From the NCBI GenBank assembly GCA_020725145.1, contig DYFO01000001.1, forward strand, positions 46,855-110,854: DNA of 64,000 nt, read 5' to 3'. This document shows positions 26,298-63,625 of this stretch, piece by piece. Positions within the stretch are counted from its first letter, which is position 1. Each line of letters opens with the position of its first letter. Source of the DNA: Symbiobacterium thermophilum. Its GTDB lineage: Bacteria; Bacillota; Sulfobacillia; UBA995. The notes beneath the pieces are model-generated. The model did no database searches and had not been told where the DNA came from. It worked only from the letters and a program-made list of their open reading frames with translations. The position numbers were made by a program, and so were the translations under genes.

Positions 26298-26779
26298 GTG
26301 CGACTTCCGACAAGACCCCGCGAGTGGTCAACCCGCGTTTCAAGTACGAGGTGGCCGACCGTCCGGGAGGACAGAACCTCAAGGTGTGCTTTGGCTGCGG
26401 TGTCTGTACCGCCGGGTGCCCGGTGGCCGAGATCGATACCGCCTACAGCCCCCGCCGGATCATCCGGCTCGTGCTGCTGGGAATGGAAGAGGAAGTACTC
26501 AGCTCGGAGCTGATCTGGCTGTGCACCACCTGTTTCACCTGTTACGCCAGGTGCCCGCAGGACGTCAAGTTCACCGACGTGATGGGGGTGCTGCGCGAGC
26601 TGGCGGTGGAACGCGGTTACGTGGACCCCTCCTTCCCCGCCCGTCTGCGCCACATGGATGAGCTGGTGCAGACCTTGCGTCGCGACGCCGTGCGCCGGAT
26701 GGCCGCCGACCGGCGCCGGGCGGTGCCGGTCGCCGTTGACGAGCTCAAGGAGCTTGTGCGGGAGGTCGCCGATGCCTGA
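26294..26779 (+). CDS. hdrC: HdrC-like 2x[4Fe-4S] protein
   Basis: ATGA overlap with the previous gene. Two motifs are present: CFGCGVCTAGCP and CTTCFTCYARCP. Confidence 0.7.
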   Translation: MSATSDKTPRVVNPRFKYEVADRPGGQNLKVCFGCGVCTAGCPVAEIDTAYSPRRIIRLVLLGMEEEVLSSELIWLCTTCFTCYARCPQDVKFTDVMGVLRELAVERGYVDPSFPARLRHMDELVQTLRRDAVRRMAADRRRAVPVAVDELKELVREVADA

Positions 26780-29700
26780 AGCAGTGCGTGGGGCCAAGAC
26801 AGACGTGACCGGGTCGGTAACCGGCGCGGCGCTGGTGGTGGGGGGCGGTATCGCCGGCATGCAGGCCGCCCTGGACCTCGCCGAGGCGGGCTTTTACGTC
26901 TACCTCGTGGAGCGTTCGCCGTCCATCGGGGGTACCATGGCCCGTCTGGACAAGACCTTCCCCACCAACGACTGCGCCATGTGCATCCTTTCGCCGAAAC
27001 TGGTGGAGTGCGGGCGGCACCTCAACATCGAAACTTTGACCTGTGCCGAGGTGCTGGACCTTGAAGGGCAGCCCGGCAACTTCCGCGTCCGCGTCCGCCG
27101 CCACCCGCGCTACGTCGATCTCTCGAAGTGCACCGGCTGCGGAGACTGCGAGAAGGAATGCCCCGTCCGCAGGCCCAATGCGTACGAGGGTGGGCTCAGC
27201 CTCCGCAAGGCCATCTTCCGCCCGTTCCCGCAGGCCTACCCCAACGCCTTCGCCATCGAGAAGGCGGCCAGGCCCATGTGCCAGGTGGCCTGTCCCGCCG
27301 GGGTGCACGCGCAGGGTTACGTGGCGCTGATCGCCGAGGGCAAGTTCCGGGAGGCGGTGGCCCTGGTCCGGCGGGACAACCCGCTGCCGGCCGTCTGCGG
27401 CCGCGTCTGCCATCACCCCTGTGAGGCTTCCTGCCGCCGCGGCCTTGTCGACGAGCCGGTGGCCATCGCGGCCCTCAAGCGCTTCGTCGCCGATTACGAG
27501 CACGAGCTCGACGGGGAGATCGAACTTGCGCCGCGCGCCGAGCCCCGCCCGGAGAAAGTCGCGGTCGTGGGCTCGGGTCCCGCCGGACTGACCTGTGCGC
27601 ACTACCTTGCGATGGACGGCTTCGCGGTGACGGTGTTCGAGGCGTTGCCGGTCGCCGGCGGCATGCTGGCGGTGGGCATCCCGTCCTACCGCCTGCCGCG
27701 TCCGGTGCTGGAGACGGAAGTTCGCCAGATCGAGCGCATGGGGGTCAAGATCCGCACCGGCACCGCGCTGGGCCGCGATTTCAGCCTGGACGACCTGTGG
27801 CGGCAGGGCTACCGGGCGGTCTTCCTCGCGGTGGGTGCCCACCAGGACCAGAAGCTCGGGATACCCGGCGAGGAGTCTCGGCAAGTGGTGTCCGGCGTCC
27901 AGTTCCTGCGCCGCATCAACCTCGGCGAGGCGGTAGACGTGGGCCGGCGCGTGCTGGTGATCGGCGGCGGCAACGTGGCCGTCGACGCCGCCCGCAGCTG
28001 CCTGCGCATGGGCGCCGAAGAGGTCACCGTCGTCTACCGCCGTTCCCGCGCCGAGATGCCCGCCGCCCCGCATGAGGTGGCGGCGGCGGAGGAGGAAGGC
28101 GTGCGTTTTATCTTCCTGACCGCACCGGCCGCGGTGCTGGGGGACGGCGAAGTCCGCGGGTTGCGGTGCCTGCGGATGCAGCTCGGTGAGGCCGACGCCT
28201 CCGGGCGCCGCCGCCCGGTGCCGGTCCCCGGCTCCGACTTCACGCTGCATGCCGACCAGATCATCGTGGCCATCGGCCAGACGCCCGACACCGCTTTCGC
28301 CGGCGAGCACCGGACGGCGCTGGTCGGCCGCTGGGGCACGCTGACGGCCGACCCCCAGACGCTGGCCACCGGACTCCCCGGGGTGTTTGCCGGTGGCGAT
28401 GCGGTCAGCGGGCCGGCCACGGTGGTGGAGGCCATCGCCGCCGGGCGTCGGGCCGCCGCCGCCATCCGGCGCTACCTTGACGGCCGGGACCTGAAGGACG
28501 GTCTTGCCGCCCGCCCCGAACCCGTGGTGGGCGAGGTGCCCTGGCAGACCCCCCGGGCTCCCCGGGCGGTGATGCCCACCCTCGCCTCGTCGGAACGCCT
28601 CCGCGGCTTCCAGGAGGTGGAGCTGGGTCTTGACGAGGCGGCCGCGGTGGCCGAGGCCCGGCGTTGTCTGGACTGCGGCATCTGCGCCGAGTGCATGGAG
28701 TGCGAGCGTGTCTGCCGCGCCCGCGCGGTGGTCCACGACCAGCCCGAGGAGATCCGCGAGCTTGCAGTGGGGGCGGTGGTGCTGTGTCCCGGCTTTGACA
28801 CCACCGCGCCCGAGCGGCTCTTCCACCTCGGTTACCGCCGTTTCCCCAACGTGGTGACCAGCGTGGAGTTCGAGCGCATCCTCTCGGCCTCCGGTCCCTT
28901 CGAGGGCCACGTGGTTCGCCCCTCCGACCGCCAAAAGCCCCATCGCATCGCCTTCGTGCAGTGCGTGGGCTCGCGCGACCTGCGCTATGGCGAGGGCTAT
29001 TGCTCCTCGGTGTGTTGCATGTACGCGTTGAAGGAAGCGGTGATCGCCCGCGAGCACGTGGCCGGCGACCTCGACGTCACCGTGTTCTACATGGACATGC
29101 GGGCCTACGGCAAGGATTTCGAGCACTACCTGAACCGCGCGCAGGCCGAATACGGGGTGCGGCTGGTCCGGGCCAAGGTGGAAGCGGTGGAAGCCGGCAA
29201 GACGCCCGGAGGTCTTTCGGTCTGCTACGCCGCCGACGACGGGCGGCCGGCGCGCGAGGAGTTCGACATGGTAGTACTGTCGGTGGGCATGCGCCCCTCC
29301 TCCGAGGTGGTGGAGCTCGCCCGCCGTTTGGGTATCAGCCTCGACGAGTATGGCTTCCCCCGCCCGGTGCCCGGACACCCCACGCATACCTCGCTGCCCG
29401 GCGTGCTGGTGGCCGGACCTTTCGCCGCGCCCAAGGACATTCCGGAAACGGTTGTCGAGGCCAGCGCGGCGGCGGCCGAAGCGGGGAAGGTGCTGGCGTT
29501 GCGACGCGGCGAGCTGGTGCGGCGCCGCGAGTACCCGCCCGAGCGCCCGGTGGCCAACCGGGCTCCGCGCGTGGGCGTCTTCGTCTGCCACTGCGGCATC
29601 AACATCGGCGGGGTGGTCAGGGTGCCCGAAGTCGTGGAGCACGCCCGGCGGCTGCCGGGCGTGGTCTGGGCCGAGGAGAACCTTTACACCTGCTCGCAGG

Positions 29701-31217
29701 ACACCCAGGACCGCATCAAGCAACTCATCGCCGAACACGACCTCAACCGGGTGGTGGTAGCCTCGTGCTCGCCGCGCACCCACGAGCCGCTCTTCCAGCA
29801 GACCATCCGTGAGGCGGGGCTCAACCCTTACCTTTTCGAGATGGCCAACATCCGCGACCAGTGCTCCTGGGTGCACATGCAGGAACCGGACGCGGCCACC
29901 GCCAAGGCCAAGGACCTGGTGACGATGGCGGTGGCCAAGGCCCGCCACCTCGAGCCGCTTTACCGCGTGTCGCTACCGGTGACGCAGGCGGCGCTGGTCG
30001 TGGGAGGAGGGGTGGCGGGGCTCACCGCCGCGCTGGGCTTGGCCCGCCAGGGCTTCCCGGTATGCCTGGTGGAGCGGCAAGCCGAGCTCGGCGGTCAGGC
30101 GCGGCGGTTGACCGCCACCCTGGAGGGTGAGGACGTCCCCGCCCTGCTGGCGGAGCTTGTGGGCGAGGTAACGGCCCACCCGCTGATCACCGTGCATACG
30201 GGGTCGACGGTCCGTGAGGTGGAGGGCTTCGTGGGCAACTTCTCCAGCAAGCTGTCCACGCCGGCCGGCGAGGTCACTTTCCGGCACGGCGTGGTGGTAG
30301 TGGCCACGGGAGCCTTTCCGGCCGTGCCCGAAGGCTACCGGTACGGCGAGGACGCGCGCGTGCTGACCCTTCTGGAGATGGAGGAGGCACTGACCGCCGG
30401 CCGCCTCCCGGCGGGCGACGTGGTGATGATCGGCTGCGTGGGTTCGCGGGACGAGACGCGGCCGTACTGCAGCCGCGTTTGTTGCTCGCACATGGTGAAG
30501 AACGCCCTTGCCCTGCGCAGACGTTATCCCGACCGCGAGGTGTACGTGCTCTACCGCGACATGCGCACCTACGGGCGCAAGGAGGATTACTACCGCCAGG
30601 CCCGCGAGGCGGGGGTGACCTTCCTGCGTTACCCGTCGGAGCGACCTCCCGTGCTGAGCGAGCGCGACGGGCGGCTCGGGGTAGAGGTCTTCGATCCCCT
30701 GCTCGGCGAGAAGCTGGTGATCGGCGCCGGGGTCGTCGGGCTGGCCTCCGGTATCGAACCCCACGGCGATGCCCGTACGCTGGCGCAGCTACTCAAGGTG
30801 CCGCTGAACGCGGACGGGTTCTTCCTGGAGGCCCACGTCAAGCTCCGTCCGGTGGACTTTGCGACCGAGGGGGTGTTCGTGGCGGGTCTTTGCCACGCCC
30901 CCAAGACCCTCACCGAGAGCATGGCGCAGGCGCTGGCGGCGGTAGGGCGGGCCACGACGGTGGTGGCGCGCGAGGCCATCGAGGCCGGCGGCCCGGTGGC
31001 GGAGGTGCGCGAGGGCCGCTGCAGCGGTTGCCGGACCTGTGAGGGGGTCTGCCAGTACGCCGCCATCAAGGTGGACCCCGACCGGGGCCGCGCCGTGGTG
31101 GAAAAGGCCCTGTGCAAGGGCTGCGGCGCCTGCGCCGCCACCTGCTGGTGCGGCGCCGTCAGCCTGCGCGGCTTCACCGAGGAGCAGATCCTGGCGGAGG
31201 TGACGGCCCTGCTATGA
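26772..31217 (+). CDS. Giant (~1480 aa) HdrA-GltD-HdrA fusion flavo-iron-sulfur oxidoreductase
   Basis: ATG 26772 overlaps the hdrC stop. The N-terminal HdrA-like FAD domain is followed by [4Fe-4S] motifs, a GltD/NADPH-glutamate-synthase-beta-like module (KVAVVGSGPAGLTCAHYL...VLVIGGGNVAVDAARS), ferredoxin motifs, the HdrA core (CVGSRD...GYCSSVCC) and its thioredoxin-like insert. A second HdrA-like FAD domain (ALVVGGGVAGLTAAL...CVGSRDETRPYCSRVCC) and a C-terminal ferredoxin follow. Confidence 0.75.
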   Translation: MPEAVRGAKTDVTGSVTGAALVVGGGIAGMQAALDLAEAGFYVYLVERSPSIGGTMARLDKTFPTNDCAMCILSPKLVECGRHLNIETLTCAEVLDLEGQPGNFRVRVRRHPRYVDLSKCTGCGDCEKECPVRRPNAYEGGLSLRKAIFRPFPQAYPNAFAIEKAARPMCQVACPAGVHAQGYVALIAEGKFREAVALVRRDNPLPAVCGRVCHHPCEASCRRGLVDEPVAIAALKRFVADYEHELDGEIELAPRAEPRPEKVAVVGSGPAGLTCAHYLAMDGFAVTVFEALPVAGGMLAVGIPSYRLPRPVLETEVRQIERMGVKIRTGTALGRDFSLDDLWRQGYRAVFLAVGAHQDQKLGIPGEESRQVVSGVQFLRRINLGEAVDVGRRVLVIGGGNVAVDAARSCLRMGAEEVTVVYRRSRAEMPAAPHEVAAAEEEGVRFIFLTAPAAVLGDGEVRGLRCLRMQLGEADASGRRRPVPVPGSDFTLHADQIIVAIGQTPDTAFAGEHRTALVGRWGTLTADPQTLATGLPGVFAGGDAVSGPATVVEAIAAGRRAAAAIRRYLDGRDLKDGLAARPEPVVGEVPWQTPRAPRAVMPTLASSERLRGFQEVELGLDEAAAVAEARRCLDCGICAECMECERVCRARAVVHDQPEEIRELAVGAVVLCPGFDTTAPERLFHLGYRRFPNVVTSVEFERILSASGPFEGHVVRPSDRQKPHRIAFVQCVGSRDLRYGEGYCSSVCCMYALKEAVIAREHVAGDLDVTVFYMDMRAYGKDFEHYLNRAQAEYGVRLVRAKVEAVEAGKTPGGLSVCYAADDGRPAREEFDMVVLSVGMRPSSEVVELARRLGISLDEYGFPRPVPGHPTHTSLPGVLVAGPFAAPKDIPETVVEASAAAAEAGKVLALRRGELVRRREYPPERPVANRAPRVGVFVCHCGINIGGVVRVPEVVEHARRLPGVVWAEENLYTCSQDTQDRIKQLIAEHDLNRVVVASCSPRTHEPLFQQTIREAGLNPYLFEMANIRDQCSWVHMQEPDAATAKAKDLVTMAVAKARHLEPLYRVSLPVTQAALVVGGGVAGLTAALGLARQGFPVCLVERQAELGGQARRLTATLEGEDVPALLAELVGEVTAHPLITVHTGSTVREVEGFVGNFSSKLSTPAGEVTFRHGVVVVATGAFPAVPEGYRYGEDARVLTLLEMEEALTAGRLPAGDVVMIGCVGSRDETRPYCSRVCCSHMVKNALALRRRYPDREVYVLYRDMRTYGRKEDYYRQAREAGVTFLRYPSERPPVLSERDGRLGVEVFDPLLGEKLVIGAGVVGLASGIEPHGDARTLAQLLKVPLNADGFFLEAHVKLRPVDFATEGVFVAGLCHAPKTLTESMAQALAAVGRATTVVAREAIEAGGPVAEVREGRCSGCRTCEGVCQYAAIKVDPDRGRAVVEKALCKGCGACAATCWCGAVSLRGFTEEQILAEVTALL

Positions 31218-34481: not shown

Positions 34482-35138
34482 TTGATCGTCTGCGAGCGCA
34501 AGCCGCTGTCCACCATCCTGGAGAGCCTCCGGAGCTACCGCAAGGTGGTGATCGCCGGCTGTTCGGAGTGCGTCACCGTGTGCCATGCCGGCGGCGAGAA
34601 GGAGGTGGCCCTGCTTCGCGACCTCATCTTGCTGGCCCGCAATGACCTGACGGTCACCACCGAAGTGCTCACGCGCCAGTGCGACGTCGAGTTCCTGGAG
34701 GCGCTGGACGGGCATGTCGAAAAGGCCGAGTGCGTGGTCTCCATGGCCTGCGGCGTTGGGGTGCAGTTCCTGGCCGAACGTTACCCCGCAACCTGGGTGA
34801 TACCGGCGGTCGACACCCGCTTCGCCGGCGGCTCCCGCCAGCCCGGCACCTGGGAGGAGCGCTGCGGCCTGTGCGGCGACTGCGTGCTGCATCTCACCGG
34901 CGGCATCTGCCCCGTCGCCCGCTGCTCCAAGAGCCTGCTCAACGGTCCCTGCGGCGGCTCTCAGGGCGGCCGTTGCGAGGTCGGCGAGGAGCTAAGCTGC
35001 GCCTGGCACGAGATCCACGACCGCCTCGAAAAGCTCGGAAGGCTCGATCTCCTGGAGGTCGTGCTTCCCCCCAAGGACTGGTCCCGCGCCAGGGACGGTG
35101 GACCCCGCAAGCTTCTCCGGGAGGACGTCGCGGTATGA
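34482..35138 (+). CDS. metV: MetV (MTHFR-associated Zn/Fe-S subunit, 'MTHFR C-terminal' family)
   Basis: The 218-aa Cys-rich protein (CSECVTVCH...CGLCGDCVLHLTGGICPVARC) is ATGA-coupled to metF. Confidence 0.7.
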   Translation: MIVCERKPLSTILESLRSYRKVVIAGCSECVTVCHAGGEKEVALLRDLILLARNDLTVTTEVLTRQCDVEFLEALDGHVEKAECVVSMACGVGVQFLAERYPATWVIPAVDTRFAGGSRQPGTWEERCGLCGDCVLHLTGGICPVARCSKSLLNGPCGGSQGGRCEVGEELSCAWHEIHDRLEKLGRLDLLEVVLPPKDWSRARDGGPRKLLREDVAV

Positions 35139-36064
35139 GTAACGGCCAAAGCAAGCTCGAACGGCTGCTCCACGACGGGCACTTCGTGGTCACGGCGGAA
35201 GTGGGCCCTCCCCAGGGGGCCGCGGCCGACGGCATCCGGCACCACGCCGAGCTCCTCAAGGACGTGACCGACGGCCAGAACCTCACCGACAACCAGACGG
35301 CCATCGTCCGTCTGTCCAGCATAGCCGCGGGGGTGCACGTGCTGGCGGCCGGCGGCGAGCCGATCATCCAGATGACCTGCCGCGACCGTAACCGCATCGC
35401 CATCCAGAGCGACCTGCTGGGGGCCTGGAGCCTGGGCATCCGCAACCTGCTGTGCCTGAGCGGCGACCACCAGTCCTTCGGCAACCACCCCTCCGCCCGC
35501 AACGTATTCGACCTGGATTCGGTGCAGCTGGTCAAGATGGTGCGCGAGATGGCCGACCCCGGCATCTTCCAAAACGGCGAGGCCATCGCCGAGAACGCGC
35601 GACCCCGCTTCTTCGTGGGTGCGGCGGAGAACCCCTTCGCCGAGCCCTTTGCCTTCCGCGTGCGCCGCCTGGCGAAGAAGGTGGCGGCGGGTGCCCAGTT
35701 CATCCAGACCCAGGCCATCTTCGACCTTCCCCGCTTCGAGCGGTGGATGCAGATGGTGCACGACGCGGGCCTCGATGAAAAGGTGTACATCCTCGGAGGC
35801 ATCTGCCCTGCCAAGTCTTTCGGTGCCCTGCGCTACATGAGCAAGGTGCCCGGCATGGCCGTGCCCGACGCGTTGCTCGACCGTATGAAGGGTGTGGAAC
35901 GCAAACGGCAGGCCGAAGAAGGCATCCGCATCGCCGTGGAAACCATCCAGCGCCTGCGCGAGATCAAGGGGGTCCGCGGGGTGCACGTGATGGCCATCAT
36001 GTGGGAGGAGATGGTTCCCCGCATCGTGGAGGAAGCCGGGCTTTTGCCGAGGCCCGTAGCCTGA
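35135..36064 (+). CDS. metF: 5,10-methylenetetrahydrofolate reductase MetF
   Basis: The 309-aa TIM-barrel MTHFR (FVVTAEVGPP...) is the last gene of the redox/WL block. Confidence 0.85.
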   Translation: MSNGQSKLERLLHDGHFVVTAEVGPPQGAAADGIRHHAELLKDVTDGQNLTDNQTAIVRLSSIAAGVHVLAAGGEPIIQMTCRDRNRIAIQSDLLGAWSLGIRNLLCLSGDHQSFGNHPSARNVFDLDSVQLVKMVREMADPGIFQNGEAIAENARPRFFVGAAENPFAEPFAFRVRRLAKKVAAGAQFIQTQAIFDLPRFERWMQMVHDAGLDEKVYILGGICPAKSFGALRYMSKVPGMAVPDALLDRMKGVERKRQAEEGIRIAVETIQRLREIKGVRGVHVMAIMWEEMVPRIVEEAGLLPRPVA

Positions 36065-36126
36065 CGGGCGCCGACACCCATAACCTGCGTCAGGAGGCGT
36101 AAAGACATGCCGCAATACGGGGTCCG

Positions 36127-36679
36127 GTGCACCGGCTGTCTGTCGTCCAGGTTCTTCCGCGGGTGATCTTGCCGGGGCGAAGCCCCTGCCCGGAGGTGAG
36201 CGAGATCCAGATCGCCCGGTGCTCCAAGGAAGACTTCGACCAGATCCTCGCCGAACTGGTTGATTTCTGGGGAAGTGAGCGTACCGCCCACCTGCATCAC
36301 CCCATCTTCCTCTACCAGTTCGGCGATACGGCCCATGTGATCGGGGAGGAAGGCCGCGTGCTCGCCTATCTCTTCGGCTTTCTTGCGCAGACCGGCCCCG
36401 TGGCCTAGGTGCACCTCGTCGCCGTGCGTCGCGCAAACCGCAGACAGGGCCGCGGGCGGCGGCTGTACGAGCACTTCATCGAGCAGGCGCGCGGCCGCGG
36501 CTGCAGGCGGCTGCAGGCGGCTGCAGGCCATCACCACCCCCGGCAACCTCGATTCCATCCGCTTTCACCTCGGTCTGGGAATGCAGATGCTGGGCCGGCC
36601 GGGCCCGGACGGCATCCCCGTGGTGCCCGATTACGCAGGCCCCGGCCAGCCGCGGGTGGCTTTCCACCGCGCCATATGA
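36127..36679 (+). pseudogene. GNAT N-acetyltransferase disrupted by an in-frame TAG (36406-36408) and a +10-bp tandem-repeat frameshift
   Basis: Frame 1 reads ...YLFGFLAQTGPVA*VHLVAVRRANRRQGRGRRLYEHFIEQARGRGCRRLQ. After the repeat the GNAT C-terminus continues in frame 2 (AITTPGNLDSIRFHLGLGMQ...). Removing one 10-bp unit restores a single ORF. Confidence 0.75.
36498..36527. repeat. Perfect 3x direct tandem repeat of the 10-bp unit CGGCTGCAGG
   Basis: Read directly in the sequence at 36498-36527. It lies inside the GNAT pseudogene. Confidence 0.9.
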
Positions 36680-36765
36680 TCCGGGCGCCGGAGGAGCCCG
36701 CCCCCTTCCCGGCGAATTGTCAGTAAGTTCCCGCAGGCTCTGGACGCCGGCATGCTCCTTGGGGG

Positions 36766-38241
36766 GTGGGCGCCGTGATGACCGGCCAGCAGTATCTTGA
36801 GTCGCTGCGCAGGCTGAAGCCTTGCCTGTACTACCGCGGCGAGCGGGTGGAGGACGTCACCGCCCATCCCGTGCTCGCCCCCCACGTGCGCGCGGCGGCG
36901 CTGACCTATGAGCTCGCCCACGAGGAGCGGTACGCCGGGCTGATGACCGCACGATCGCACCTTGACGGCCGGCCGATCAACCGCTTCACCCATGTTCACC
37001 GGGACACCGGTGACCTGGTGGCCAAGGTGAAGATGCTGCGGCTGCTGGGGCAGAAGACCGGAAGCTGTTTTCAGCGCTGCGTGGGACTTGACGCCCTCAA
37101 CGCGCTGTATTCGGTGACCTATGAGATGGATGCGGAGCACGGAACCGACTACCACAGGCGGCTCGCCGCCTTCCTTGCCGAAGTTCAGGCCGGCGACCTC
37201 ATGTGTGCGGGCTCGATGACCGACGTGAAGGGGGATCGCGCGCGGCGACCCTCGGAGCAGCGAGACCCCGACCTCTATGTGCGGGTGGTCGACCGCGACG
37301 GGCGAGGGGTGGTGCTGCGGGGCGCCAAGGCCCACCAGACGGGCATGGCCAACGCGCACCACATGGTGCTGATGCCCACCATGGCCCTGGGCGAGGCGGA
37401 CAGGGCTTACGCGGTGGCCTGCGCCGTGCCGGTGGACGCTCCGGGCGTGGTGCACGTGTTCGGTCGCCAGACCAACGACGGCCGGCGCCGGGCAGGTCTG
37501 GGAGTGGACGTGGGCAACGCGCGCTTCGGCGTGGTAGGAGGTGAGACCACCACCATTCTGCAGGACGTATTCGTGCCCTGGGAACGGGTGTTCATGGCCG
37601 GGGAGTGGCGGTGGACGGGGACGCTCGTGGAGCGGTTTGCCTCCTACCACCGGCAAAACTACGGGGGCTGCAAGGTCGGGGTGGGCGACGTGATGATCGG
37701 CGCGGCGGCCGTCATGGCGCGGCTGAACGGCGTGTTGCAGGCCTCCCACGTGCGTGACAAGCTGGTGGAGATGGTGCACCTGGTGGAGACGATGTACGCG
37801 GGATCGCTTGCCTGCTCGGTGGAGGGCCGGGCCACTCCCTCCGGGGCCTACCTGGTGGACCCCTTGCTGGCCAACACCGTCAAGCAGAACGTGACCCGCT
37901 TCGCCTACGAGGTGGCACGGTTGGCCCACGACCTTGCCGGAGGTTTGCTGGCCACGTTGCCGTCAGAGGAGGACTTCGCCCACCCCGAGGTCGGCCCGCT
38001 GCTCGGCAAGTACTTCCAGGGCGCCGGGCAGGCGGCCACCGCGGTGCGCGTGAGGGTGGCCCGCCTGCTCGAGAACATGACCGGCGGCACCGCCCTGCTG
38101 GAGTCCATGCACGGGGCCGGATCCCCACAGGCGCAACGGGTGATGATCCTCCGCCAGGCGGCCTTGGCCGACAAGCAGCGGCTGGCGCTGGAACTCGCGG
38201 GCGTGCCCGAGGAAGAGAGGGATTTGCTCCTGTCCTGCTGA
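36766..38241 (+). CDS. 4-hydroxybutyryl-CoA dehydratase / vinylacetyl-CoA isomerase (AbfD-type; HpaB superfamily)
   Basis: Alternative starts exist in a GTG/GTG/ATG cluster at 36766-36778. The protein has the AbfD-type [4Fe-4S] ligand pattern C-x3-C (GSCFQRC) and H-x6-C (YHRQNYGGC). Confidence 0.7.
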   Translation: MGAVMTGQQYLESLRRLKPCLYYRGERVEDVTAHPVLAPHVRAAALTYELAHEERYAGLMTARSHLDGRPINRFTHVHRDTGDLVAKVKMLRLLGQKTGSCFQRCVGLDALNALYSVTYEMDAEHGTDYHRRLAAFLAEVQAGDLMCAGSMTDVKGDRARRPSEQRDPDLYVRVVDRDGRGVVLRGAKAHQTGMANAHHMVLMPTMALGEADRAYAVACAVPVDAPGVVHVFGRQTNDGRRRAGLGVDVGNARFGVVGGETTTILQDVFVPWERVFMAGEWRWTGTLVERFASYHRQNYGGCKVGVGDVMIGAAAVMARLNGVLQASHVRDKLVEMVHLVETMYAGSLACSVEGRATPSGAYLVDPLLANTVKQNVTRFAYEVARLAHDLAGGLLATLPSEEDFAHPEVGPLLGKYFQGAGQAATAVRVRVARLLENMTGGTALLESMHGAGSPQAQRVMILRQAALADKQRLALELAGVPEEERDLLLSC

Positions 38242-38301
38242 ATATTGCCACCTCACCGAACATTCCGTCTATATTGGTGGAACTACGGGGAGGTGGTCCC
38301 G

Positions 38302-39831
38302 GTGAACCTCGTGGAGCTGGCGGAGGACAACATCCGCCGCTATGGCGAGCACGTGCGGCTGGTCTACAAGGACCGTGACTACACCAACGTGGAGCTGAAC
38401 GCCGACTCCGGGCGGCTGGCGCATGCGCTTGCCGGGTTCGGGGTGATGCCCGGCGACCGCGTGGCCTGCATCACCCTGAACAGCCCCGAGACCTGCATCG
38501 CCTATAACGCGGTCTGGCGAATGGGCGCCGTGCTGGTGCCCATTCTCTTTCTGCTCAACCCGGCGGAGGTGAGCTTCATCCTCCGCGACGCCGAGGCGAA
38601 GGTGGTGCTGGTCGACAGCCTGCTTTATCCCAACTTCGGACCGTGCATCGCTCGGGCGCCCTCGGTCGCCGGCGTGATCCTGGTGGGCACGGACACCGCA
38701 CCGGAAGGAACGGTTGCCTTCCCGGATGCTCTGGCCGGGCGGCCGGACACCTTCCCGGCGTCGGCGGTGGCCGACCACGACCCGGCCGTGCTGCTTTACA
38801 CGTCGGGCACCACCGGCCGGCCCAAGGGGGTGATGCTCTCGCACGCCAACCTGTACGGCAACGCCGTGGCTGCCTCGGAAACGCAGCGGTACACGCGCGA
38901 AGACGTGGCGCTGTTCGTGCTGCCGCTGGCCCACTCCTACGGGCTGACGCTGATGAACGTGGGACAGCTGTACGGAATGAAGGGAGTGCTGCTGCCCTGG
39001 TTCGAAGCCGGCGAGGCCCTGCGCCTGATCGAGAAGCACCGTGTGACCAACCTCGCGGGCGTGCCTACCATGTTCCACATGCTGCTCAATCACCCCGACG
39101 CCGACGTCCGCGACACCTCTTCCCTCAAGCGCTGCACCTCGGGTGCCGCTCCCCTCCCGGTGGAGCTGCTCGAGAGCTTTCAGCGCAAGTTCGACTGCGT
39201 GATCCTGGAAGGCTATGGGCTCAGCGAAGCCTCGCCGGTGGTCACCGCCCACCGTGAGGGCTATCCCCAGAAGCCCGGCTCGGTGGGGCTCCCCCTGCCC
39301 GGGGTGGAGGTCCGCATCGTGGACGACACCGGTGACGCCCTGCCGGTGGGTGAGGTGGGTGAACTGCTGGTACGCGGCCCGAACGTGATGTTGGGCTACT
39401 ACCGCATGCCCCAGGAGACGGCGGAGGCGTTGCGGGGAGGCTGGCTGCACACCGGGGATATGGCCCGCATGGACGAGGACGGTTACCTGTACATCGTCGA
39501 GCGCAAAAAGGACCTCATCATCCGCGGGGGCTTCAACGTCTATCCCCGCGACGTGGAAGAAGTGCTCCTGACCCATCCGGCGGTGGCCGAGGCCGCCGTC
39601 ATCGGCATCCCCGACCCCGTGATGGGGGAGGAGATCAAGGCCTACGTGGTGCTCACCTACGGCGAGCGCGCCGGTGAGGAGGACATCCTGGCGCACTGCC
39701 AAAGGAGCCTGGCCCGCTACAAGTGTCCGCGTGAGATCGAGTTCGTTCCCGCCCTGCCCAAGAACGCCATAGGCAAGGTGCTGCGCAAGGAACTACGGCG
39801 CATGCACGCGGAGAAGGCCCGGACAGCCTGA
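38302..39831 (+). CDS. AMP-forming acyl-CoA synthetase/ligase
   Basis: GTG 38302 follows a GGGGAGGTGG RBS. The AMP-binding motif is YTSGTTGRPKGVMLSH. Confidence 0.8.
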   Translation: MNLVELAEDNIRRYGEHVRLVYKDRDYTNVELNADSGRLAHALAGFGVMPGDRVACITLNSPETCIAYNAVWRMGAVLVPILFLLNPAEVSFILRDAEAKVVLVDSLLYPNFGPCIARAPSVAGVILVGTDTAPEGTVAFPDALAGRPDTFPASAVADHDPAVLLYTSGTTGRPKGVMLSHANLYGNAVAASETQRYTREDVALFVLPLAHSYGLTLMNVGQLYGMKGVLLPWFEAGEALRLIEKHRVTNLAGVPTMFHMLLNHPDADVRDTSSLKRCTSGAAPLPVELLESFQRKFDCVILEGYGLSEASPVVTAHREGYPQKPGSVGLPLPGVEVRIVDDTGDALPVGEVGELLVRGPNVMLGYYRMPQETAEALRGGWLHTGDMARMDEDGYLYIVERKKDLIIRGGFNVYPRDVEEVLLTHPAVAEAAVIGIPDPVMGEEIKAYVVLTYGERAGEEDILAHCQRSLARYKCPREIEFVPALPKNAIGKVLRKELRRMHAEKARTA

Positions 39832-39845
39832 GTCCGGGCCTTCTC
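39811..39845. terminator. Bidirectional rho-independent-type hairpin between convergent genes
   Basis: GAGAAGGCCCGGAC-agcctga-GTCCGGGCCTTCTC is a perfect 14-bp stem. The ligase TGA stop sits in its loop. The convergent MBL gene stops at 39856. Confidence 0.6.
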
Positions 39846-39855
39846 CGCAGATCCA

Positions 39856-40539
39856 CTAGCCCTCGGCGCCGGTAACGGTCAGCACCCAGACCGAGCACCC
39901 CTGGGGAAGTCCGTCCGGTGTCAGTTCCAGCTCGCCTTGCTGGAAGTGACGCACCTCGGGTTTGCCGGCGAGGAACTCGTCCACCGTCGCGATGGGCCAG
40001 TCGGCTATCGCCGGTGTGCGGTAGTGCATGGGCACCACCACCCGTGGGTTGAACAGCCCTGCCACCTGGTCGGCGTCGGCGGCGTCGGCGGTGTACACCC
40101 CGCCCACGGGGAGGAAGAGGACGTCCGGCCGTCCGACGTTGCCGGCCACCGTCCGCGAGGGCACGTGACCCAGGTCGCCCAGGTGAAGCAGTTTCATCTC
40201 CCCCGTCTCCACCAGCCACAAAGCGTTGCGTCCGCGCCGCGCCCCTTCGTCGGCGTCGTGGTAGGTCCCCGGAACCGAGGTCAACCTCACGTCCCCTACT
40301 TCCCGGGAGATCCGCTGCCAGCCGCCGCGGGCGTTCAGTCCCCGGAGCACCAGGGGGTCGCCGCGCACCTCCTTGACGGCGTTGTGGTCGAAATGTTCGT
40401 GGCTGACGGTAACCACGTCCGCGGTTACCTGCGGGGTACCGTAGCCCATGCCGCCGCCGAAGGGGTCGGTGACCACCCTTATTCCCCCGGGCGACGTTAT
40501 CAGGAACATGGCGTGGCCCAGCCAGCGCAGCCGGACCAT
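39856..40539 (-). CDS. Metallo-beta-lactamase-fold metal-dependent hydrolase
   Basis: The translation VTVSHEHFDHN matches the HxHxDH motif. It is a 227-aa protein. Its start overlaps the sbcC stop by 1 nt (TGATG). Confidence 0.7.
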   Translation of the reverse strand: MVRLRWLGHAMFLITSPGGIRVVTDPFGGGMGYGTPQVTADVVTVSHEHFDHNAVKEVRGDPLVLRGLNARGGWQRISREVGDVRLTSVPGTYHDADEGARRGRNALWLVETGEMKLLHLGDLGHVPSRTVAGNVGRPDVLFLPVGGVYTADAADADQVAGLFNPRVVVPMHYRTPAIADWPIATVDEFLAGKPEVRHFQQGELELTPDGLPQGCSVWVLTVTGAEG

Positions 40540-44268: not shown

Positions 44269-45951
44269 GTGCTCATGCTTCCCGGCAAGGAGGCGATCGC
44301 GTCGGCCAGGATCACCCTGGTGGAGCCCAGGGCACCCCACTATCACGTGTTCAGCTCGGTGCGACTGCCCCGGCTGGGCCTGGTGACGCTGGCCACCGAA
44401 CTCGCACGCCGTGGTCACCAAGCCCGGGTCTGGTGCCAGGCCTTCGGCGAGGTCCCCGCCTTCGAGCTTCTTCGCTCCGATCTGGTAGGGCTGAGCGTCA
44501 CCACCTCCACCGCGCCCGAGGCCTACCGTCTGGCGCGCCTGCTGCGACACCAGGGGGTCACCGTGGTGCTCGGCGGCCCCCACGTAACCTTCCTGCCCGA
44601 GGAGGGTCTCGAGGTCGCCGACTACGTGCTGCGGGGAGAGGCGGAGGCCACTCTCTCGGCCTTGGTCGACTGCCTGACGCGGGGAGAGGACTGGCGCTGG
44701 GTGCCCGGGCTGTCCTATCGCGAAGGGGGAAGCTGCGTGCACAATCCCCTGCCTCCGCCGGTGGAACCCGACGCGCTTGCCCGGCCCGACCTCGGGGTGC
44801 TGCAAAACGCCGGACGCCTCAGCCTGCACCCGATGTTGACCTCGCGCGGTTGTCCCCACGAATGCACCTTTTGCGGGGTAACCGCCATGTTCGGCCGCCG
44901 GTACCGGTTCCGGGCCGCCGAGGCGGTGGTCGCGGAGCTGGCCGCCTGCCGGGGCAGGCGCGTGTTCTTCTACGACGACAACTTCACGGCATCACCGTCC
45001 CGCGCCCGCGAGATCCTGCGTCTGGCCCTGGAACGGCGGGCGGTCCCGCGGGCCTGGATGGCGCAGGTGAGGGTGGAGGCCGCGCGGGACGCCGAGCTTC
45101 TCCGGCTCATGGCGCGCACCAACTGCCGAATGGTACACGTGGGACTGGAGTCGGTCAACCCGGGCACCCTCCGGAGCTTCCGCAAAGGCCAGGGTGTCGA
45201 GGACGTGCGCCACTGCATCCGGGCCTTCCACCGGCACGGCATCGCCGTCCACGGCATGTTCGTGCTGGGCGGCGACGAGGACACCGTCGAGACGGTGGAA
45301 GAGACGGTCGCCTTCGCCCGCGCCGAGAGGCTGGACACCGCCCAGTTCATGGTGCTCACCCCCCTCCCCGGAACGACGCTGTTCGCCGACCTCGAGCGCC
45401 AGGGGAGGCTGCTGACCCGTGACTGGTCGCGCTACGACGGTCATCACGTGGTGCATCTTCCCGCCCGCATGACTCCCCAGGAGCTGCAGGCGGCCACCGT
45501 CCGCGCGTTCGCCCGCTTTTACGGGCTGGGCAACGCCTTCCTCGACTTCCTCACCGGCCGGCCCGGTGCCGCAGGCTACAAGCTGATGGGCCGTTACATA
45601 CTCGGCCGCTGGTTGGCCCATCATCCCGATCTCGAGGCCGCCGTCGGGCCGGCGCCCAGGAGGCGCTTCCGCCTGGAAGGCTTGCTCGACGCCGAGACCT
45701 TGGCACGACTGACGGCCGAGCTCCGCACCGCCTTGCGGGCGGGCCAGCGGCAGCTGGAGATCCAGCTCGCCGACCTCGAGCTACCGTCGGAGCAGACGTT
45801 CGGACGGTTGATCCGCTTCCTGGACGGCCTGGCCGCCCGCCCGGGGGTGAGCGTCCGCCTGCTAGGGTTGGGCGCCCGCCTGGAGAACATGGTGATGGCC
45901 ATGCTGGCCAGGCTACCCCGGTTCGACTGCGTGCGACCGGACGAGGCCTGA
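44269..45951 (+). CDS. B12-binding-domain radical SAM protein
   Basis: The N-terminal cobalamin-binding Rossmann-like domain is followed by CPHECTFCG (CxxxCxxC). Total length is 560 aa. Confidence 0.75.
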   Translation: MLMLPGKEAIASARITLVEPRAPHYHVFSSVRLPRLGLVTLATELARRGHQARVWCQAFGEVPAFELLRSDLVGLSVTTSTAPEAYRLARLLRHQGVTVVLGGPHVTFLPEEGLEVADYVLRGEAEATLSALVDCLTRGEDWRWVPGLSYREGGSCVHNPLPPPVEPDALARPDLGVLQNAGRLSLHPMLTSRGCPHECTFCGVTAMFGRRYRFRAAEAVVAELAACRGRRVFFYDDNFTASPSRAREILRLALERRAVPRAWMAQVRVEAARDAELLRLMARTNCRMVHVGLESVNPGTLRSFRKGQGVEDVRHCIRAFHRHGIAVHGMFVLGGDEDTVETVEETVAFARAERLDTAQFMVLTPLPGTTLFADLERQGRLLTRDWSRYDGHHVVHLPARMTPQELQAATVRAFARFYGLGNAFLDFLTGRPGAAGYKLMGRYILGRWLAHHPDLEAAVGPAPRRRFRLEGLLDAETLARLTAELRTALRAGQRQLEIQLADLELPSEQTFGRLIRFLDGLAARPGVSVRLLGLGARLENMVMAMLARLPRFDCVRPDEA

Positions 45952-45960
45952 CCGAGGAGT

Positions 45961-46760
45961 GGCCGCCGCAAGCCCCCGGCTTCGGCCAAGGGGATAAGGC
46001 GGCCGGCAGGCAGCTTGGGTGGGGTATAATGTTTCCATGCCGCGGTACACGGTGGAGTACAAATCGCACAACAACGTGGTCTATTCCTGCAAGTACCACG
46101 GCATATGGTGTCCCAAGCACCGCCGCCCCGTCTTGGTCCCCGAGGTCGCCGAGCGGCCAAAGCCGATTATACGTGCCGTAGCTGAAGAATACGGCGCGGA
46201 AGTCGCCGAGCTTGAGGTCATGCCGGACCACGTGCACCTTCTGGTGGAAGTCGATCGGCAGTTCGGCGTCCACCAGCTGGTTCGGAAGAGCAAAGGCCGG
46301 TCGTCCCGGCTGCTGCGGGACGAGACGAAGCTCTCCCAGGCCTGTCACGGCTGTGGGACGATCGAGAAAGAGCCTCTGGCCCTGCGCGTCCACGCCTGCG
46401 AGTGCGGGGTCTTCATGCAGCGCGACCTCTACTCGGCGTTTCTGGCGCGGTGCGTGGGGGAAGACAATTTGCTCCACGCGGGCCTGGCGCGAATGCGCTG
46501 GCCGGGTGCGGAACCGCTCTTGCGGGCGGCGTGGAGCGAAGCCACCCAACCTGCGAATGGACGGCTCGGGCCGTCCTCCTTCGGGGTCTTACCCTGGAGT
46601 CGGAGCGGGTCGCCCGCGGAAGAGGGGATAGCCAAGGCCGAGGCCCCGGATGCCCTAGCGGAGGCGCAAGTCTCCGGCGAGAGCCGGGGAGAGGCGGCGG
46701 TGGTTCCCCTCAGCACCCCCCGGCTTTAGCCGTGGGGAGGTTCAGAAAGGGCCGTCTACT
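45961..46760 (+). mobile_element. Decayed IS200/IS605-family element with a chimeric TnpA(N-terminus)-TnpB(C-terminal Zn ribbon) ORF
   Basis: A structured hairpin-rich leader spans 45961-46004. The ORF combines the Y1/HuH transposase N-terminus ([14 protein letters not shown]...[11 protein letters not shown]...KGRSSRLL) with the TnpB C-terminal zinc-finger region ([10 protein letters not shown]...[19 protein letters not shown]). Confidence 0.6.
46037..46729 (+). CDS. Chimeric IS200 TnpA-like / TnpB C-terminal remnant ORF (probably non-functional)
   Basis: ATG 46037 lies just after a TATAAT at 46025-46030. Motifs are as in the mobile_element entry. The TnpA catalytic-Tyr half and the TnpB RuvC body are absent. 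Confidence 0.55.
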
Positions 46761-46817
46761 GAAGGACGGTCGCGCGCCGGCGTAGAAGTCGGGGTTGGCG
46801 AAAGAGGTGAGCGGAAG

Positions 46818-47777
46818 TTGCCTGCCAACCTGACTCCCGAATACCGCGAGGCCGAGCAGCGTTTCCGGGAGGCGCAGACCCCTGAGGAGAAGCTCGCCGC
46901 CCTTGAGGACATGCTGCGAACCATCCCCAAGCACAAGGGTACCGAGAAGATGCAGGCCGACATCAAGCGGCGCATCGCCCGTTTGCGCCAGGAAGGCAAC
47001 CGGCGCCCGGCTTCGGCGCGCCATCGGCCCACCCATCACGTGCGGCGTGAGGGTGCCGGGCAGGTAGCTCTGGTGGGACCGCCCAACGGCGGCAAATCCG
47101 CCCTGCTCGCGGCCTTGACCAACGCGCAGCCGGTGGTGGCCGACTATCCGTTCACCACCCGCGAACCCCAGCCGGGGATGATGCCGTTCGAGAACGTGCA
47201 GATTCAGCTCGTGGACCTGCCCCCGCTGGCGAGGGAGCTTATGCCTCCGTGGCTGCCCGGGGTGGCGCGGGCGGCCGACGCGGTCGTGCTGGTGCTGGAC
47301 CTCAGCGACGATGACGTTCTCAGCCAGGCAGAAGAAAGTCTCGAGCTTCTGCGGGGGATGCGGCTCGACCTTTCGGGAGAGGGCGGCAAGCGGGGGCTGG
47401 TCGCCGGAACTCGCCGCGACCGGCCGGGGGCCCAGGAGCACGCGGAGCTCCTGCGTGAGCTGCTCGGCGAACGCCTGCCGGTGGTGGCGGTGTCGGCCAC
47501 CCGGGGAGACAACCTGGACGAGCTCAAGCGTCGCATCTTCGAATCGCTGGGGATCATACGCGTGTACACCAGGGCGCCCGGCAAGAAACCCGATCTTACG
47601 GCACCCTTCGTGCTGCCACGGGGTTGCACGCTCCTGGAGGCGGCGGCCGCCGTGCACAAGGATTTCGCCCGCGATCTCAAGTACGCCAGGGTCTGGGGAG
47701 CTTCCACCTTCGACGGCCAGATGGTGCAGCGCGATCACGTGCTGCAGGACGGCGACGTGGTGGAGTTTCACGTCTGA
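46818..47777 (+). CDS. Obg/DRG-family GTPase with a C-terminal TGS domain
   Basis: TTG 46818 follows GAAAGAGGTGAG. The G-domain has G1 ([10 protein letters not shown]) and G3 (DLPP). The C-terminal TGS is ...[32 protein letters not shown].... Confidence 0.65.
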
Positions 47778-57384: not shown

Positions 57385-57415
57385 CGGGTTACCCCATCGG
57401 GAAGAGGTGAAACCA

Positions 57416-57979
57416 GTGGCAAGCAAGACGGTTCGGCTGCGCCCGCCGCTTGATGCGGATCGGGTGCGCGGGCTGCGGGCCGGAGACAGGGTGCTTTTGT
57501 CGGGCGTCATCTACACCGCCCGTGACGCCGCCCACAAGCGCCTGGTGGAAGCCCACGACAGGGGCGAGCCGCTCCCCGTGGAGCTGTCGGGTCAGGTGAT
57601 CTACTACGTGGGTCCCTGCCCGCCCAAGCCCGGCCAGGCGATCGGTTCGGCCGGTCCGACCACCTCGGGACGCATGGACCCTTACACCCCGGCGCTCATC
57701 CGGCTTGGCCTGCGGGCGATGGTGGGTAAGGGACTGCGCGGCCCCCAGGTGGTGGAGGCCATGAAGCAGTACGGAGCGGTCTACCTGGTGGCCACCGGGG
57801 GGGCGGGGGCGCTGCTGGCCCGCCGCATCAAGGCGGCGGAAGTGGTGGCCTACCCCGACCTCGGTCCCGAGGCCATCTACCGGCTCGAGGTGGAGGAATT
57901 CCCCACCATCGTGGCCATCGACGCCCAAGGCAACGATCTTTACGCCGAGGGCAAACGCCAGTACGCCAGGCAAGCCTGA
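57416..57979 (+). CDS. Class I fumarate hydratase / tartrate dehydratase beta subunit
   Basis: GTG 57416 follows GGGAAGAGGTGA. A 187-aa beta-type subunit follows the alpha gene. Confidence 0.75.
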   Translation: MASKTVRLRPPLDADRVRGLRAGDRVLLSGVIYTARDAAHKRLVEAHDRGEPLPVELSGQVIYYVGPCPPKPGQAIGSAGPTTSGRMDPYTPALIRLGLRAMVGKGLRGPQVVEAMKQYGAVYLVATGGAGALLARRIKAAEVVAYPDLGPEAIYRLEVEEFPTIVAIDAQGNDLYAEGKRQYARQA

Positions 57980-59244: not shown

Positions 59245-59335
59245 GCCGGTAACCTTGCCAGAGCATTGCCCCGCCCAGGGTCCGGCTGTGCCGGACCCTG
59301 GAGCGGCTTTACTCCGGCGACGCGGGAGGGTAGCC

Positions 59336-62179: not shown

Positions 62180-63625
62180 GTGGCGCTGAAGACCCGCCAG
62201 GAGTACCGGGCGGCCCTGGCGTCCCTCAGACCGAACATCTACAAGTTCGGTCGGGCCGTGACGGATGTGACGGCCGATCCGCTCACGCGTCGGGTGGTCG
62301 AGAGCCATTCGCGGGCGTATGACGGAGCGCACGACCCCCGGCGGTGCGAGCTGTTCACCTGTCGTTCGTCCTTGAGCGGGGCCACCGTTCATCGCTGGAA
62401 CTCGCTTTGCGTCTCCGCGGACGATCTTGTGAGCGCCGCCCGCTTCAAACGCGAGATGTTCCGCCTCACCGGCACCTGCACCGGCGGTGCCTGTGTGGGG
62501 TGGAACGCGCTCGGCGCCCTGTGGGCCGTCACCTTCGAGGTCGACGCCGTCCGCGGCACCTGCTATCACGAACGCTTGCGCCGGTGGGCGCTCGAAGCGG
62601 AGGAAGCGGGCTGGATGGTGGCGGGAGCCCTGACCGACGCCAAGGGAAACCGCAGCCTGCCGCCCGCCTCGCAGCCCGCCCACTACCTGCGGGTGGTGGA
62701 CGAAGACTCCGGCGGCATCGTGGTTCGTGGCTGCAAGGCGATGATCGCCGGGGTGGCCGCCTCGCACCAGGTGCTGGTGATGCCGGGCACCACCTGCCGT
62801 GAGGCGGACCGCGACTTCGCGGTGGCCTTCGCCGTGCCCCGCGACGCCGAAGGTCTCACGGTGGTGGAGACCCGGCGGCCCAGCGACGGCCGCGAGCTCG
62901 AGGCGGGCTTCGACGTCCCGGAGACCGGGATCACCCAGGCCTTCTTGCTCTTCCGCGATGTCTACGTACCGCTCGATCGTGTCTTCCTCCTGCGCGAGCC
63001 CGAGTTCACCGCCGGCCTGATCCGCTACTTCACCGCCAACTACCGGGCCGGCATCGGTGCCTGCGTGGCGGGCCAGGGAGACGTGATGATCGGCGCGGCG
63101 GTGCTCATGGCGCGGGCCAACGGCCTGCCCGGCCGCGTCTTTCGCGACCGTCTGGTGGAGATGGCCGTCAACAACGAGACCACCTTCGGGCTGGGGGTGG
63201 GTGCGGTGGCGCTTGGCAGGCCACATCCCTCGGGCGTCTGGCTGGCCGACCCGCTCACCGCCCACGTCAACAAGGTCCTGGTCTCGCGGCTTCCCCAGGA
63301 GACACGGCGCCTGTGCCAGGAGATCGCGGGGGGAGTGGTGGAGACGGGGTGCCTGCCTTCGAGCGCCGACCTTGACAGCCCCGAGTACGGCCTCGACCTG
63401 CGGGAGGCGCTGGCGGGAGCGGTGGACGGCGAGACCCGCGCACGTGCCGCCCGCCTGGCGGAGTGGCTGACCGTCGGCGCCGGTGTCCCCGGATGCATGC
63501 ACGGCGGCGGCTCGCCCGACGGCGCGCGGGCGGTGATAAGGTCGCTTCTTTGCCTTGATGCTTGCGCCGAGCTGGCCCGGACGCTCGCGGGGATCGACGC
63601 GCCGGTACCCGAACCCGAGGCTTAA
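62180..63625 (+). CDS. Second, divergent HpaB/4-hydroxybutyryl-CoA dehydratase-family flavoprotein
   Basis: It is a paralogue of the gene at 36766-38241 (shared GDVMIGAAVLMAR motif). It has C-x4-C (GTCTGGAC) instead of C-x3-C. No His is present at the H-x6-C position. Confidence 0.6.
   Translation: MALKTRQEYRAALASLRPNIYKFGRAVTDVTADPLTRRVVESHSRAYDGAHDPRRCELFTCRSSLSGATVHRWNSLCVSADDLVSAARFKREMFRLTGTCTGGACVGWNALGALWAVTFEVDAVRGTCYHERLRRWALEAEEAGWMVAGALTDAKGNRSLPPASQPAHYLRVVDEDSGGIVVRGCKAMIAGVAASHQVLVMPGTTCREADRDFAVAFAVPRDAEGLTVVETRRPSDGRELEAGFDVPETGITQAFLLFRDVYVPLDRVFLLREPEFTAGLIRYFTANYRAGIGACVAGQGDVMIGAAVLMARANGLPGRVFRDRLVEMAVNNETTFGLGVGAVALGRPHPSGVWLADPLTAHVNKVLVSRLPQETRRLCQEIAGGVVETGCLPSSADLDSPEYGLDLREALAGAVDGETRARAARLAEWLTVGAGVPGCMHGGGSPDGARAVIRSLLCLDACAELARTLAGIDAPVPEPEA

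Follow-up and report, generated by a model that had tools for sequence, protein, structure and literature searches.

Does an HpaB-family gene that stands beside an acyl-CoA ligase gene, in a bacterium with Wood–Ljungdahl genes, encode 4-hydroxybutyrate (4HB) metabolism, and of what kind would that metabolism be? The locus lies in a stretch of 64,000 nucleotides assigned to Symbiobacterium thermophilum (assembly GCA_020725145.1, contig DYFO01000001.1; the whole stretch is hereafter "the window", G+C ~69%). The HpaB-family gene, AbfD1, very probably encodes a genuine FAD- and [4Fe-4S]-dependent 4-hydroxybutyryl-CoA dehydratase/vinylacetyl-CoA delta-isomerase (EC 4.2.1.120/5.3.3.3). Taken as a whole, the locus is best explained if AbfD1 and the ligase form a small 4HB catabolic or salvage module, a reading that we regard as probable. 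We are highly confident that neither a dicarboxylate/4-hydroxybutyrate (DC/4HB) pathway nor a succinate-to-4HB pathway is encoded in the window. The gene and its two diagnostic motifs are as follows, with 1U8V denoting the structure of AbfD from Clostridium aminobutyricum.

36778..38241, + strand: AbfD1, predicted 4-hydroxybutyryl-CoA dehydratase/vinylacetyl-CoA delta-isomerase, 487 aa, HpaB_N + HpaB_C fold (Pfam, PDB homology)
37066..37080, + strand: Cys97-x3-Cys101 (Cys99/Cys103 of 1U8V), two [4Fe-4S] ligands (alignments; invariant in 120/120 homologues)
37648..37671, + strand: His291-x3-Tyr295-x2-Cys298 (His292, Tyr296 and Cys299 of 1U8V), the His and Cys cluster ligands and the catalytic Tyr (alignments)

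AbfD1 matches HpaB_N (6e-93) and HpaB (5e-67) in Pfam, and in a HMMER comparison with the PDB it matches 1U8V (E = 8.6e-163) and the Nitrosopumilus enzyme (6VJR; 3.4e-156). Matches of this kind indicate that its resemblance to AbfD is homology, not chance. In a global alignment AbfD1 is 53% identical to 1U8V and retains 12/12 functional residues (R90, C99, Q101, C103, T190, E257, H292, Y296, C299, K300, E455, and A460, in 1U8V numbering), all of which are invariant in 120/120 of its closest database homologues. According to a structure paper on the archaeal enzyme, C99, C103, C299, and H292 hold the cluster, and T190, E257, Y296, and E455 are required for dehydration (bioRxiv 10.1101/2020.02.05.935528). 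The latter four correspond to T188, E256, Y295, and E442 of AbfD1. An earlier note on this DNA had picked out C-x3-C and H-x6-C motifs in the gene and equated them with the ligands Cys99/Cys103/His292/Cys299 of the C. aminobutyricum enzyme. Both motifs are seen in the translation (TGSCFQRCV from 37057-37083; YHRQNYGGCK from 37645-37674), and they superimpose on the 1U8V ligands in the HMMER and the global alignment alike, the comparison for which that note had asked; the ligands are Cys97, Cys101, His291, and Cys298 when counted from the ATG at 36778.

This ATG is the probable start of AbfD1, rather than the GTG at 36766: alignments with homologues begin at the ATG, and the 487-aa product read from it matches the JGI, NCBI, and Logan gene calls exactly. 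In the gene-position index, an exact match exists for the ATG start and none for the GTG. The same proteins are on record from JGI metagenome 3300029892 (Ga0246235_100078), an NCBI contig, and Logan assemblies. Codon usage of AbfD1 is native (relative synonymous codon usage r 0.96; G+C at third codon positions 0.88). The AbfD family is very large, with 8000/8000 scored candidates at E <1e-50; among the matches listed from a search of 5.8 billion proteins the best homologue of AbfD1, from other lineages, shows 68% identity, a figure that carries the caveat that the 90% cluster of AbfD1 itself is hidden behind a 47-aa representative and that orthologues above 68% may be missing. On these comparisons AbfD1 is a further, ~68%-identical member of a well-understood family. 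A scan of metagenome contigs with AbfD1 returned only remote HpaB-like loci (22-24% identity) and one 31-residue fragment match.

AbfD of C. aminobutyricum aligns with AbfD1 over its full length with identical cluster ligands and catalytic set, whereas AbfD1 adjoins an AMP-forming ligase and no 4HB dehydrogenase or transferase was present among the window open reading frames (ORFs) scanned. The gene adjoining abfD in C. aminobutyricum is one that we take to be a 4HB CoA-transferase. The 4-hydroxybutyryl-CoA dehydratase (4HBD) of N. maritimus (6VJR) and the enzymes of the crenarchaeal DC/4HB and 3-hydroxypropionate/4-hydroxybutyrate cycles would share fold and chemistry with AbfD1, but the remaining enzymes of those cycles did not turn up in the window, and the host is a high-GC bacterium with carbon monoxide dehydrogenase/acetyl-CoA synthase (CODH/ACS). 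In the 4HB cycles, 4-hydroxybutyrate is activated by a synthetase, not by a transferase (PMC13189709, PMC9802188).

The gene that follows AbfD1 had been described in the earlier note as an acyl-CoA synthetase, and an adjacent, co-oriented protein with AMP-binding and AMP-binding_C domains is indeed encoded there. The features that bear on whether the two genes form a unit are these:

38242..38301, + strand: spacer between AbfD1 and the ligase, 60 nt, containing the ligase Shine–Dalgarno GGGAGG (sequence)
38302..39831, + strand: AMP-forming acyl-CoA ligase (ANL superfamily), 509 aa (Pfam AMP-binding 9e-97, AMP-binding_C 6e-23)
39808..39848, no strand: perfect inverted repeat of 17 bp with a 7-nt loop, over the ligase stop codon (repeat search, 100% complementary)
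39856-40539, - strand: metallo-beta-lactamase (MBL)-fold (Lactamase_B_3) hydrolase, between the ligase and SbcC

The probable start of the ligase is the GTG at 38302 behind GGGAGG, not the TTG at 38245, and its core motifs (YTSGTTGRPKG, GYGLSE, GWLHTGD, and PKNAIGK) are intact in translation. A consensus scan of the spacer returned no terminator-like site. The inverted repeat folds into a hairpin of -39.6 kcal/mol (z -7.0; 0/200 shuffles fold equally well) that sits between the convergent ligase and MBL-fold genes and lacks a T-tract; it is a probable bidirectional terminator. Because the spacer is free of a terminator and a strong hairpin covers the ligase stop codon, a two-gene transcription unit is a reasonable reading, and AbfD1 and the ligase are most likely co-transcribed. 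The consensus scans gave no promoter and a single terminator site, which is intragenic. As a separate observation, CCACCUC in the spacer RNA may pair with the ligase Shine–Dalgarno GGGAGGUGG in a fold of -25.5 kcal/mol (z -2.2, 5/200 shuffles equal), which hints weakly, at most, at translational coupling or occlusion.

The ligase has the ANL-superfamily adenylating fold that a 4-hydroxybutyrate–CoA ligase (EC 6.2.1.40) is expected to have. Among solved structures, its closest matches are FadD5, malonyl-CoA synthetase (MatB), feruloyl-CoA synthetase, and 4-coumarate ligase, at ~1e-90 to 1e-80, and the matches to the PRK06187-type ligases, M. tuberculosis FadD5 (8R2Q), and R. palustris malonyl-CoA synthetase (4FUQ) are full-length at ~1e-90. 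Beyond its own lineage, the top homologue is an unnamed protein with 56-58% identity, and no close characterized relative turned up. The PRK06187 and PDB matches give no substrate prediction, and activation of 4-hydroxybutyrate or crotonate by this enzyme is only possible.

The proposed module would operate as follows. The ligase would act on a free short-chain acid, in the simplest case 4-hydroxybutyrate, and yield the CoA thioester. AbfD1 would then interconvert 4-hydroxybutyryl-CoA and crotonyl-CoA through the ketyl-radical chemistry known from the C. aminobutyricum enzyme, and crotonyl-CoA would be taken to acetyl-CoA by enzymes encoded elsewhere. Direction and physiological role are predicted as catabolic or salvage, in an anaerobe that also has the Wood–Ljungdahl pathway. 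The module would not be part of an autotrophic DC/4HB cycle, and its nearness to Wood–Ljungdahl and tricarboxylic acid (TCA)-type genes (17-23 kb) would be incidental. Within this scheme, the step in which the window ligase feeds AbfD1 is tentative and falls somewhat short of probable.

The strongest alternative is that the two genes are coincidental neighbors: AbfD1 would be a real dehydratase and the ligase a general acyl-CoA ligase with no role in 4HB metabolism, with 4-hydroxybutyryl-CoA supplied by a CoA-transferase or another route encoded elsewhere. We consider this a serious, though minority, possibility, and a series of findings that weigh against the module speak for it. The NCBIfam model PRK06187 (long-chain-fatty-acid-CoA ligase) gives the ligase 543 bits, above the cut-off of 476, and ~55% identical relatives of the ligase adjoin genes for glycerol-3-P dehydrogenase, an FAD oxidase, and an FGGY kinase, not AbfD. 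Among 80 AbfD loci of GTDB species genomes, an ANL ligase lies within 10 kb at only three. The neighbor families of AbfD (135 ORFs of 43 of these loci) are led by CoA_transf_3 (8), thiolase (6), short-chain dehydrogenases/reductases (SDR; 5), and acyl-CoA dehydrogenase (4), and AMP-binding is outside the top 25; CoA-transferases, not ligases, are thus the commonest company of AbfD. One locus (L104), for example, carries thiolase, AbfD, SDR, CoA-transferase, and 3HCDH. Against the module, though not for coincidence as such, crotonase, hydroxybutyryl-CoA dehydrogenase, and thiolase, which would complete the route, were not present among the window ORFs scanned.

The nearest sequenced relative of the window DNA, the metagenome-assembled genome (MAG) GCA_031082145.1 (hereafter the sister genome), adds to the same side. 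There too, the ligase (78% protein and 77% DNA identity) lies between MetF and SbcC, as a conserved gene of the genome backbone, but a decayed GNAT gene and AbfD1, which in the window separate it from MetF, are replaced by four unrelated genes, and no AbfD1 orthologue from this genome occurs among the matches listed from the 5.8 billion proteins. A conserved genomic association with AbfD, as would be expected of a dedicated 4-hydroxybutyrate–CoA ligase, was accordingly not found for the window ligase in the sister genome, in its ~55% relative, or across the 80 AbfD loci.

Two other loci speak for pairings of this kind. A deltaproteobacterial MAG (L041:7662-13533) encodes an operon of ANL ligase, HTH/cupin regulator, AbfD, crotonase (enoyl-CoA hydratase), and thiolase, which by its gene content is a clean bacterial case of a predicted ligase-dependent route from 4-hydroxybutyrate to acetyl-CoA, and a metagenome contig (L087) has AbfD followed by a ligase. 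In both, AbfD is 54-65% identical to AbfD1 and co-directional with an AMP-binding ligase, as in the window. The differences are that L041 adds the crotonase and thiolase that the window locus lacks and that any two of the ligases from L041, L087, and the window share only ~36% identity, the latter a further point against the module. Because the three ligases are mutually this distant, there is no dedicated AbfD-associated ligase family, and the association, where present, appears from these sequences to have arisen independently. The independent occurrence of ANL ligases inside AbfD operons nevertheless counts against pure coincidence in the window, as do the tight co-orientation of the two genes, the 60-nt spacer free of a terminator, and the position of the strong hairpin, only 3' of the ligase. 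On the side of the module stand also the native codon usage of AbfD1 and the loci, L104 among them, where AbfD is accompanied by an activating enzyme and genes of beta-oxidation. An MBL-fold gene was considered as a conserved third partner, with AbfD, ligase, and Lactamase_B in a row in L087, and was rejected: the two MBL proteins are unrelated.

The alignment with the sister genome delimits the segment that carries AbfD1:

36055..38289, + strand: variable segment (decayed GNAT gene and AbfD1) without counterpart in the nearest relative (blastn vs L089)
36127-36680, between MetF and AbfD1: decayed GNAT-type acetyltransferase gene (motif reading only; first fragment without a Pfam match)

In blastn, window and sister DNA are 78% identical up to 36054, the MetF stop, and the match picks up again at 38290, 12 nt short of the ligase start; collinearity then carries on through SbcC, SbcD, and a radical-SAM gene. 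An in-frame TAG at 36406-36408 interrupts the GNAT frame, and a 10-bp tandem repeat, GGCTGCAGGC x3 at ~36490-36520, shifts it. No convincing mobile-element signature, whether a direct or an inverted repeat, was seen on the flanks of the AbfD1 segment. With native codon usage and no such scars, the segment may either have been gained in the window lineage or lost in the sister lineage. The MBL-fold hydrolase is likewise absent from the sister genome, save for a possible remnant match of ~160 bp at 40376-40539, and this remnant-like match suggests deletions in the sister lineage. A weaker alternative for the pair is that AbfD1 and a recruited backbone ligase make up a freshly assembled 4HB-utilization module.

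A pathway reading was put forward in the earlier note, in which AbfD1, the ligase, succinyl-CoA synthetase (SucCD), fumarase, malic enzyme, and a second AbfD-like protein (AbfD2) supply most of the C4 half of a DC/4HB-type route or of a succinate/4HB fermentation. The genes on which it draws are present downstream of the ligase, 17-23 kb away (18-25 kb according to that note):

56539-57979: class I fumarase, alpha and beta
58003-59244: malic enzyme
59333-60448: SucC
60461-61369: SucD
62180..63625, + strand: AbfD2, divergent AbfD-like paralogue, 40% identity to AbfD1
63653-64000, running past the window end: second RACo-like [2Fe-2S]/ASKHA ATPase (Fer2, Raco_middle, RACo_C_ter; 595 aa in L092:2236-4023)

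In favor of such a pathway, AbfD, an acyl-CoA ligase, SucCD, and class I fumarase all lie inside 27 kb, and fumarase, succinyl-CoA synthetase, 4HB-CoA synthetase, and 4HBD are on the list of DC/4HB enzymes (PMC9802188). The same list holds succinyl-CoA reductase, succinic semialdehyde (SSA) reductase, phosphoenolpyruvate (PEP) carboxylase, pyruvate synthase, PEP synthetase, malate dehydrogenase, fumarate reductase, crotonase, and hydroxybutyryl-CoA dehydrogenase; malic enzyme is missing from it and is no enzyme of the cycle (PMC9802188). Among the window ORFs scanned, the enzymes diagnostic of such a pathway are missing: there is no succinyl-CoA reductase, SSA reductase, or 4HB dehydrogenase (no protein of aldehyde-dehydrogenase or iron-containing alcohol dehydrogenase type), and no PEP carboxylase, pyruvate synthase, PEP synthetase, malate dehydrogenase, or fumarate reductase. 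Furthermore, CODH/ACS is already encoded in full by this organism, the catalytic set is missing from AbfD2, and the DC/4HB cycle is documented for Thermoproteota archaea (PMC13189709).

Gene order argues in the same direction. Between the ligase and the fumarase genes lie ~17 kb of unrelated genes on both strands: MBL hydrolase, SbcC, SbcD, B12/radical-SAM protein, IS200-type transposase, GTPase, PpiC-type isomerase, URO-D homologue, PIN protein (toxin), hypotheticals, M24 peptidase, DinB, siroheme-synthase-like protein, CPBP protease, and DUF3870. On another contig, the sister MAG has URO-D, M24, DinB, NAD_binding_7, FumAB, malic enzyme, SucCD, Germane, AbfD2, and RACo gene-for-gene; because this block is conserved on a separate contig, it is an independent unit. 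The stretch from fumarase to RACo is thus kept complete in a relative that lacks AbfD at the ligase locus, and AbfD1, 17-23 kb from a block that is syntenic in the sister, shows no genomic or evolutionary linkage with SucCD and fumarase. With the key reductases not found among the window ORFs scanned and the block syntenic in the sister genome, the C4-pathway claim is unsupported, and we consider that reading very unlikely.

The weakest alternative, that AbfD1 is an HpaB-type flavin-dependent aromatic hydroxylase as its Pfam/NCBIfam family name says, is practically excluded: the Pfam HpaB_N/HpaB match and sub-threshold matches to TIGR02309 and TIGR02310 are in its favor, but TIGR02309 scores 152 bits against a cut-off of 480, the top HpaB oxygenase match in the same PDB comparison is only 1.1e-41 (1e-41 for oxygenase structures against 1e-163 for AbfD), AbfD1 carries every Fe-S ligand and AbfD catalytic residue, and the host genome context (CODH/ACS) is strictly anaerobic, so that the earlier judgment of an oxygenase role as unlikely is upheld.

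The second AbfD-like paralogue announced in the earlier note does exist at 62180-63625, but its ligands are not intact and its catalytic residues are lost. AbfD2 matches 1U8V and 6VJR at ~1e-82. It keeps Cys99, Cys103 (with one extra residue, as Cx4C rather than Cx3C), and Cys299, and it carries the substitutions H292Y, Y296I, E257Q, T190A, K300V, and S456C, with E455 lost (gap/G). Without His292 and the Thr190/Glu257/Tyr296/Glu455 set, it lacks the residues that define AbfD sensu stricto. The same positions were surveyed in its 120 closest homologues (58-75% identity), which come from Moorella, Desulfofundulus, Peptococcaceae, Thermodesulfobacteriota, and others. Every one of them (120/120) carries H292Y, Y296I, E257Q, and E455G, S456C occurs in 119/120, and K300V and Cx4C are also fixed, in at least 119/120. 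Because the same substitutions recur throughout these homologues, the residue loss in AbfD2 is not decay. By residue criteria AbfD2 is predicted not to be a 4-hydroxybutyryl-CoA dehydratase and to represent a separate, widespread subfamily. Many proteins of this subfamily are annotated as 4-hydroxybutyryl-CoA dehydratase in JGI and other sources, and we found no description of an AbfD-like paralogue subfamily in the literature.

AbfD2 is not part of the AbfD1–ligase unit, and it is the sole mildly novel element of the neighborhood. Its contexts elsewhere point to acyl-CoA metabolism: the Desulfofundulus locus encodes a PaaK-like ligase, AbfD2, acyl-CoA dehydrogenase (ACAD), EtfBA, and FixCX, and that of Moorella sulfitireducens thiolase, ACAD, EtfBA, and FixCX, followed by CTP_transf_like and then AbfD2. 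In the window, the second RACo-like protein is encoded directly 3' of AbfD2 and shares 36% identity with the acs-cluster RACo (19232-21166); the AbfD2–RACo pair is kept in the sister genome and does not occur in the Moorella and Desulfofundulus loci. That AbfD2 and the RACo-like ATPase constitute a new flavin/Fe-S acyl-CoA radical enzyme, with an all-Cys cluster and ATP-driven reductive activation, is conceivable; we consider it unlikely.

The gene abfD is commonly used as a metagenomic marker for CO2 fixation by 4HB cycles. The present locus indicates that such a marker, even with an adjoining CoA ligase and TCA-type genes nearby, is insufficient to establish a 4HB pathway: AbfD1 would be a normal catabolic-type AbfD in a Wood–Ljungdahl bacterium, with neighbors explained by synteny. 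A residue rule can be used to separate the two groups of proteins. A true AbfD has C-x3-C, H292, Y296, E257, and E455, and the large look-alike subfamily has C-x4-C, Y292, I296, Q257, G455, and C456.

The surroundings of the locus are Wood–Ljungdahl DNA, as the earlier note had recognized. A complete cluster lies upstream of AbfD1 (CooC, CODH, AcsB/C/D/E, RACo, HdrA-like protein, FlpD, MetV, and MetF), with these components:

Also in the cluster: AAA/VWA-CoxE accessory genes, DUF3786, CooC
13593-15626: CODH
15656-17845: AcsB
19232-21166: RACo, with AcsC in the acs cluster
Further cluster genes: second CooC, AcsD, AcsE
26583-31217: HdrA-like fusion, 1544 aa, several FAD/NAD(P) and Fe-S modules
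3' of the HdrA-like fusion, before MetV: FlpD, two Fe-S proteins, NfnA-like flavoprotein
34482-35138: MetV
ending at 36064: MetF
46037-46729, outside the cluster: IS200/IS605-type Y1 transposase gene

The set of HdrA-like fusion, FlpD, Fe-S proteins, NfnA-like flavoprotein, MetV, and MetF resembles a MetFV-Hdr-type methylene-tetrahydrofolate reductase module and is kept in the sister genome. Around the transposase gene, the sister genome has no DNA homology over 45844-46819 and carries a peptidase gene there instead. Additionally, an ORF at 4145-6988 (947 aa) has zero Pfam matches, an N-terminus that resembles a signal peptide, and host-like codon usage.

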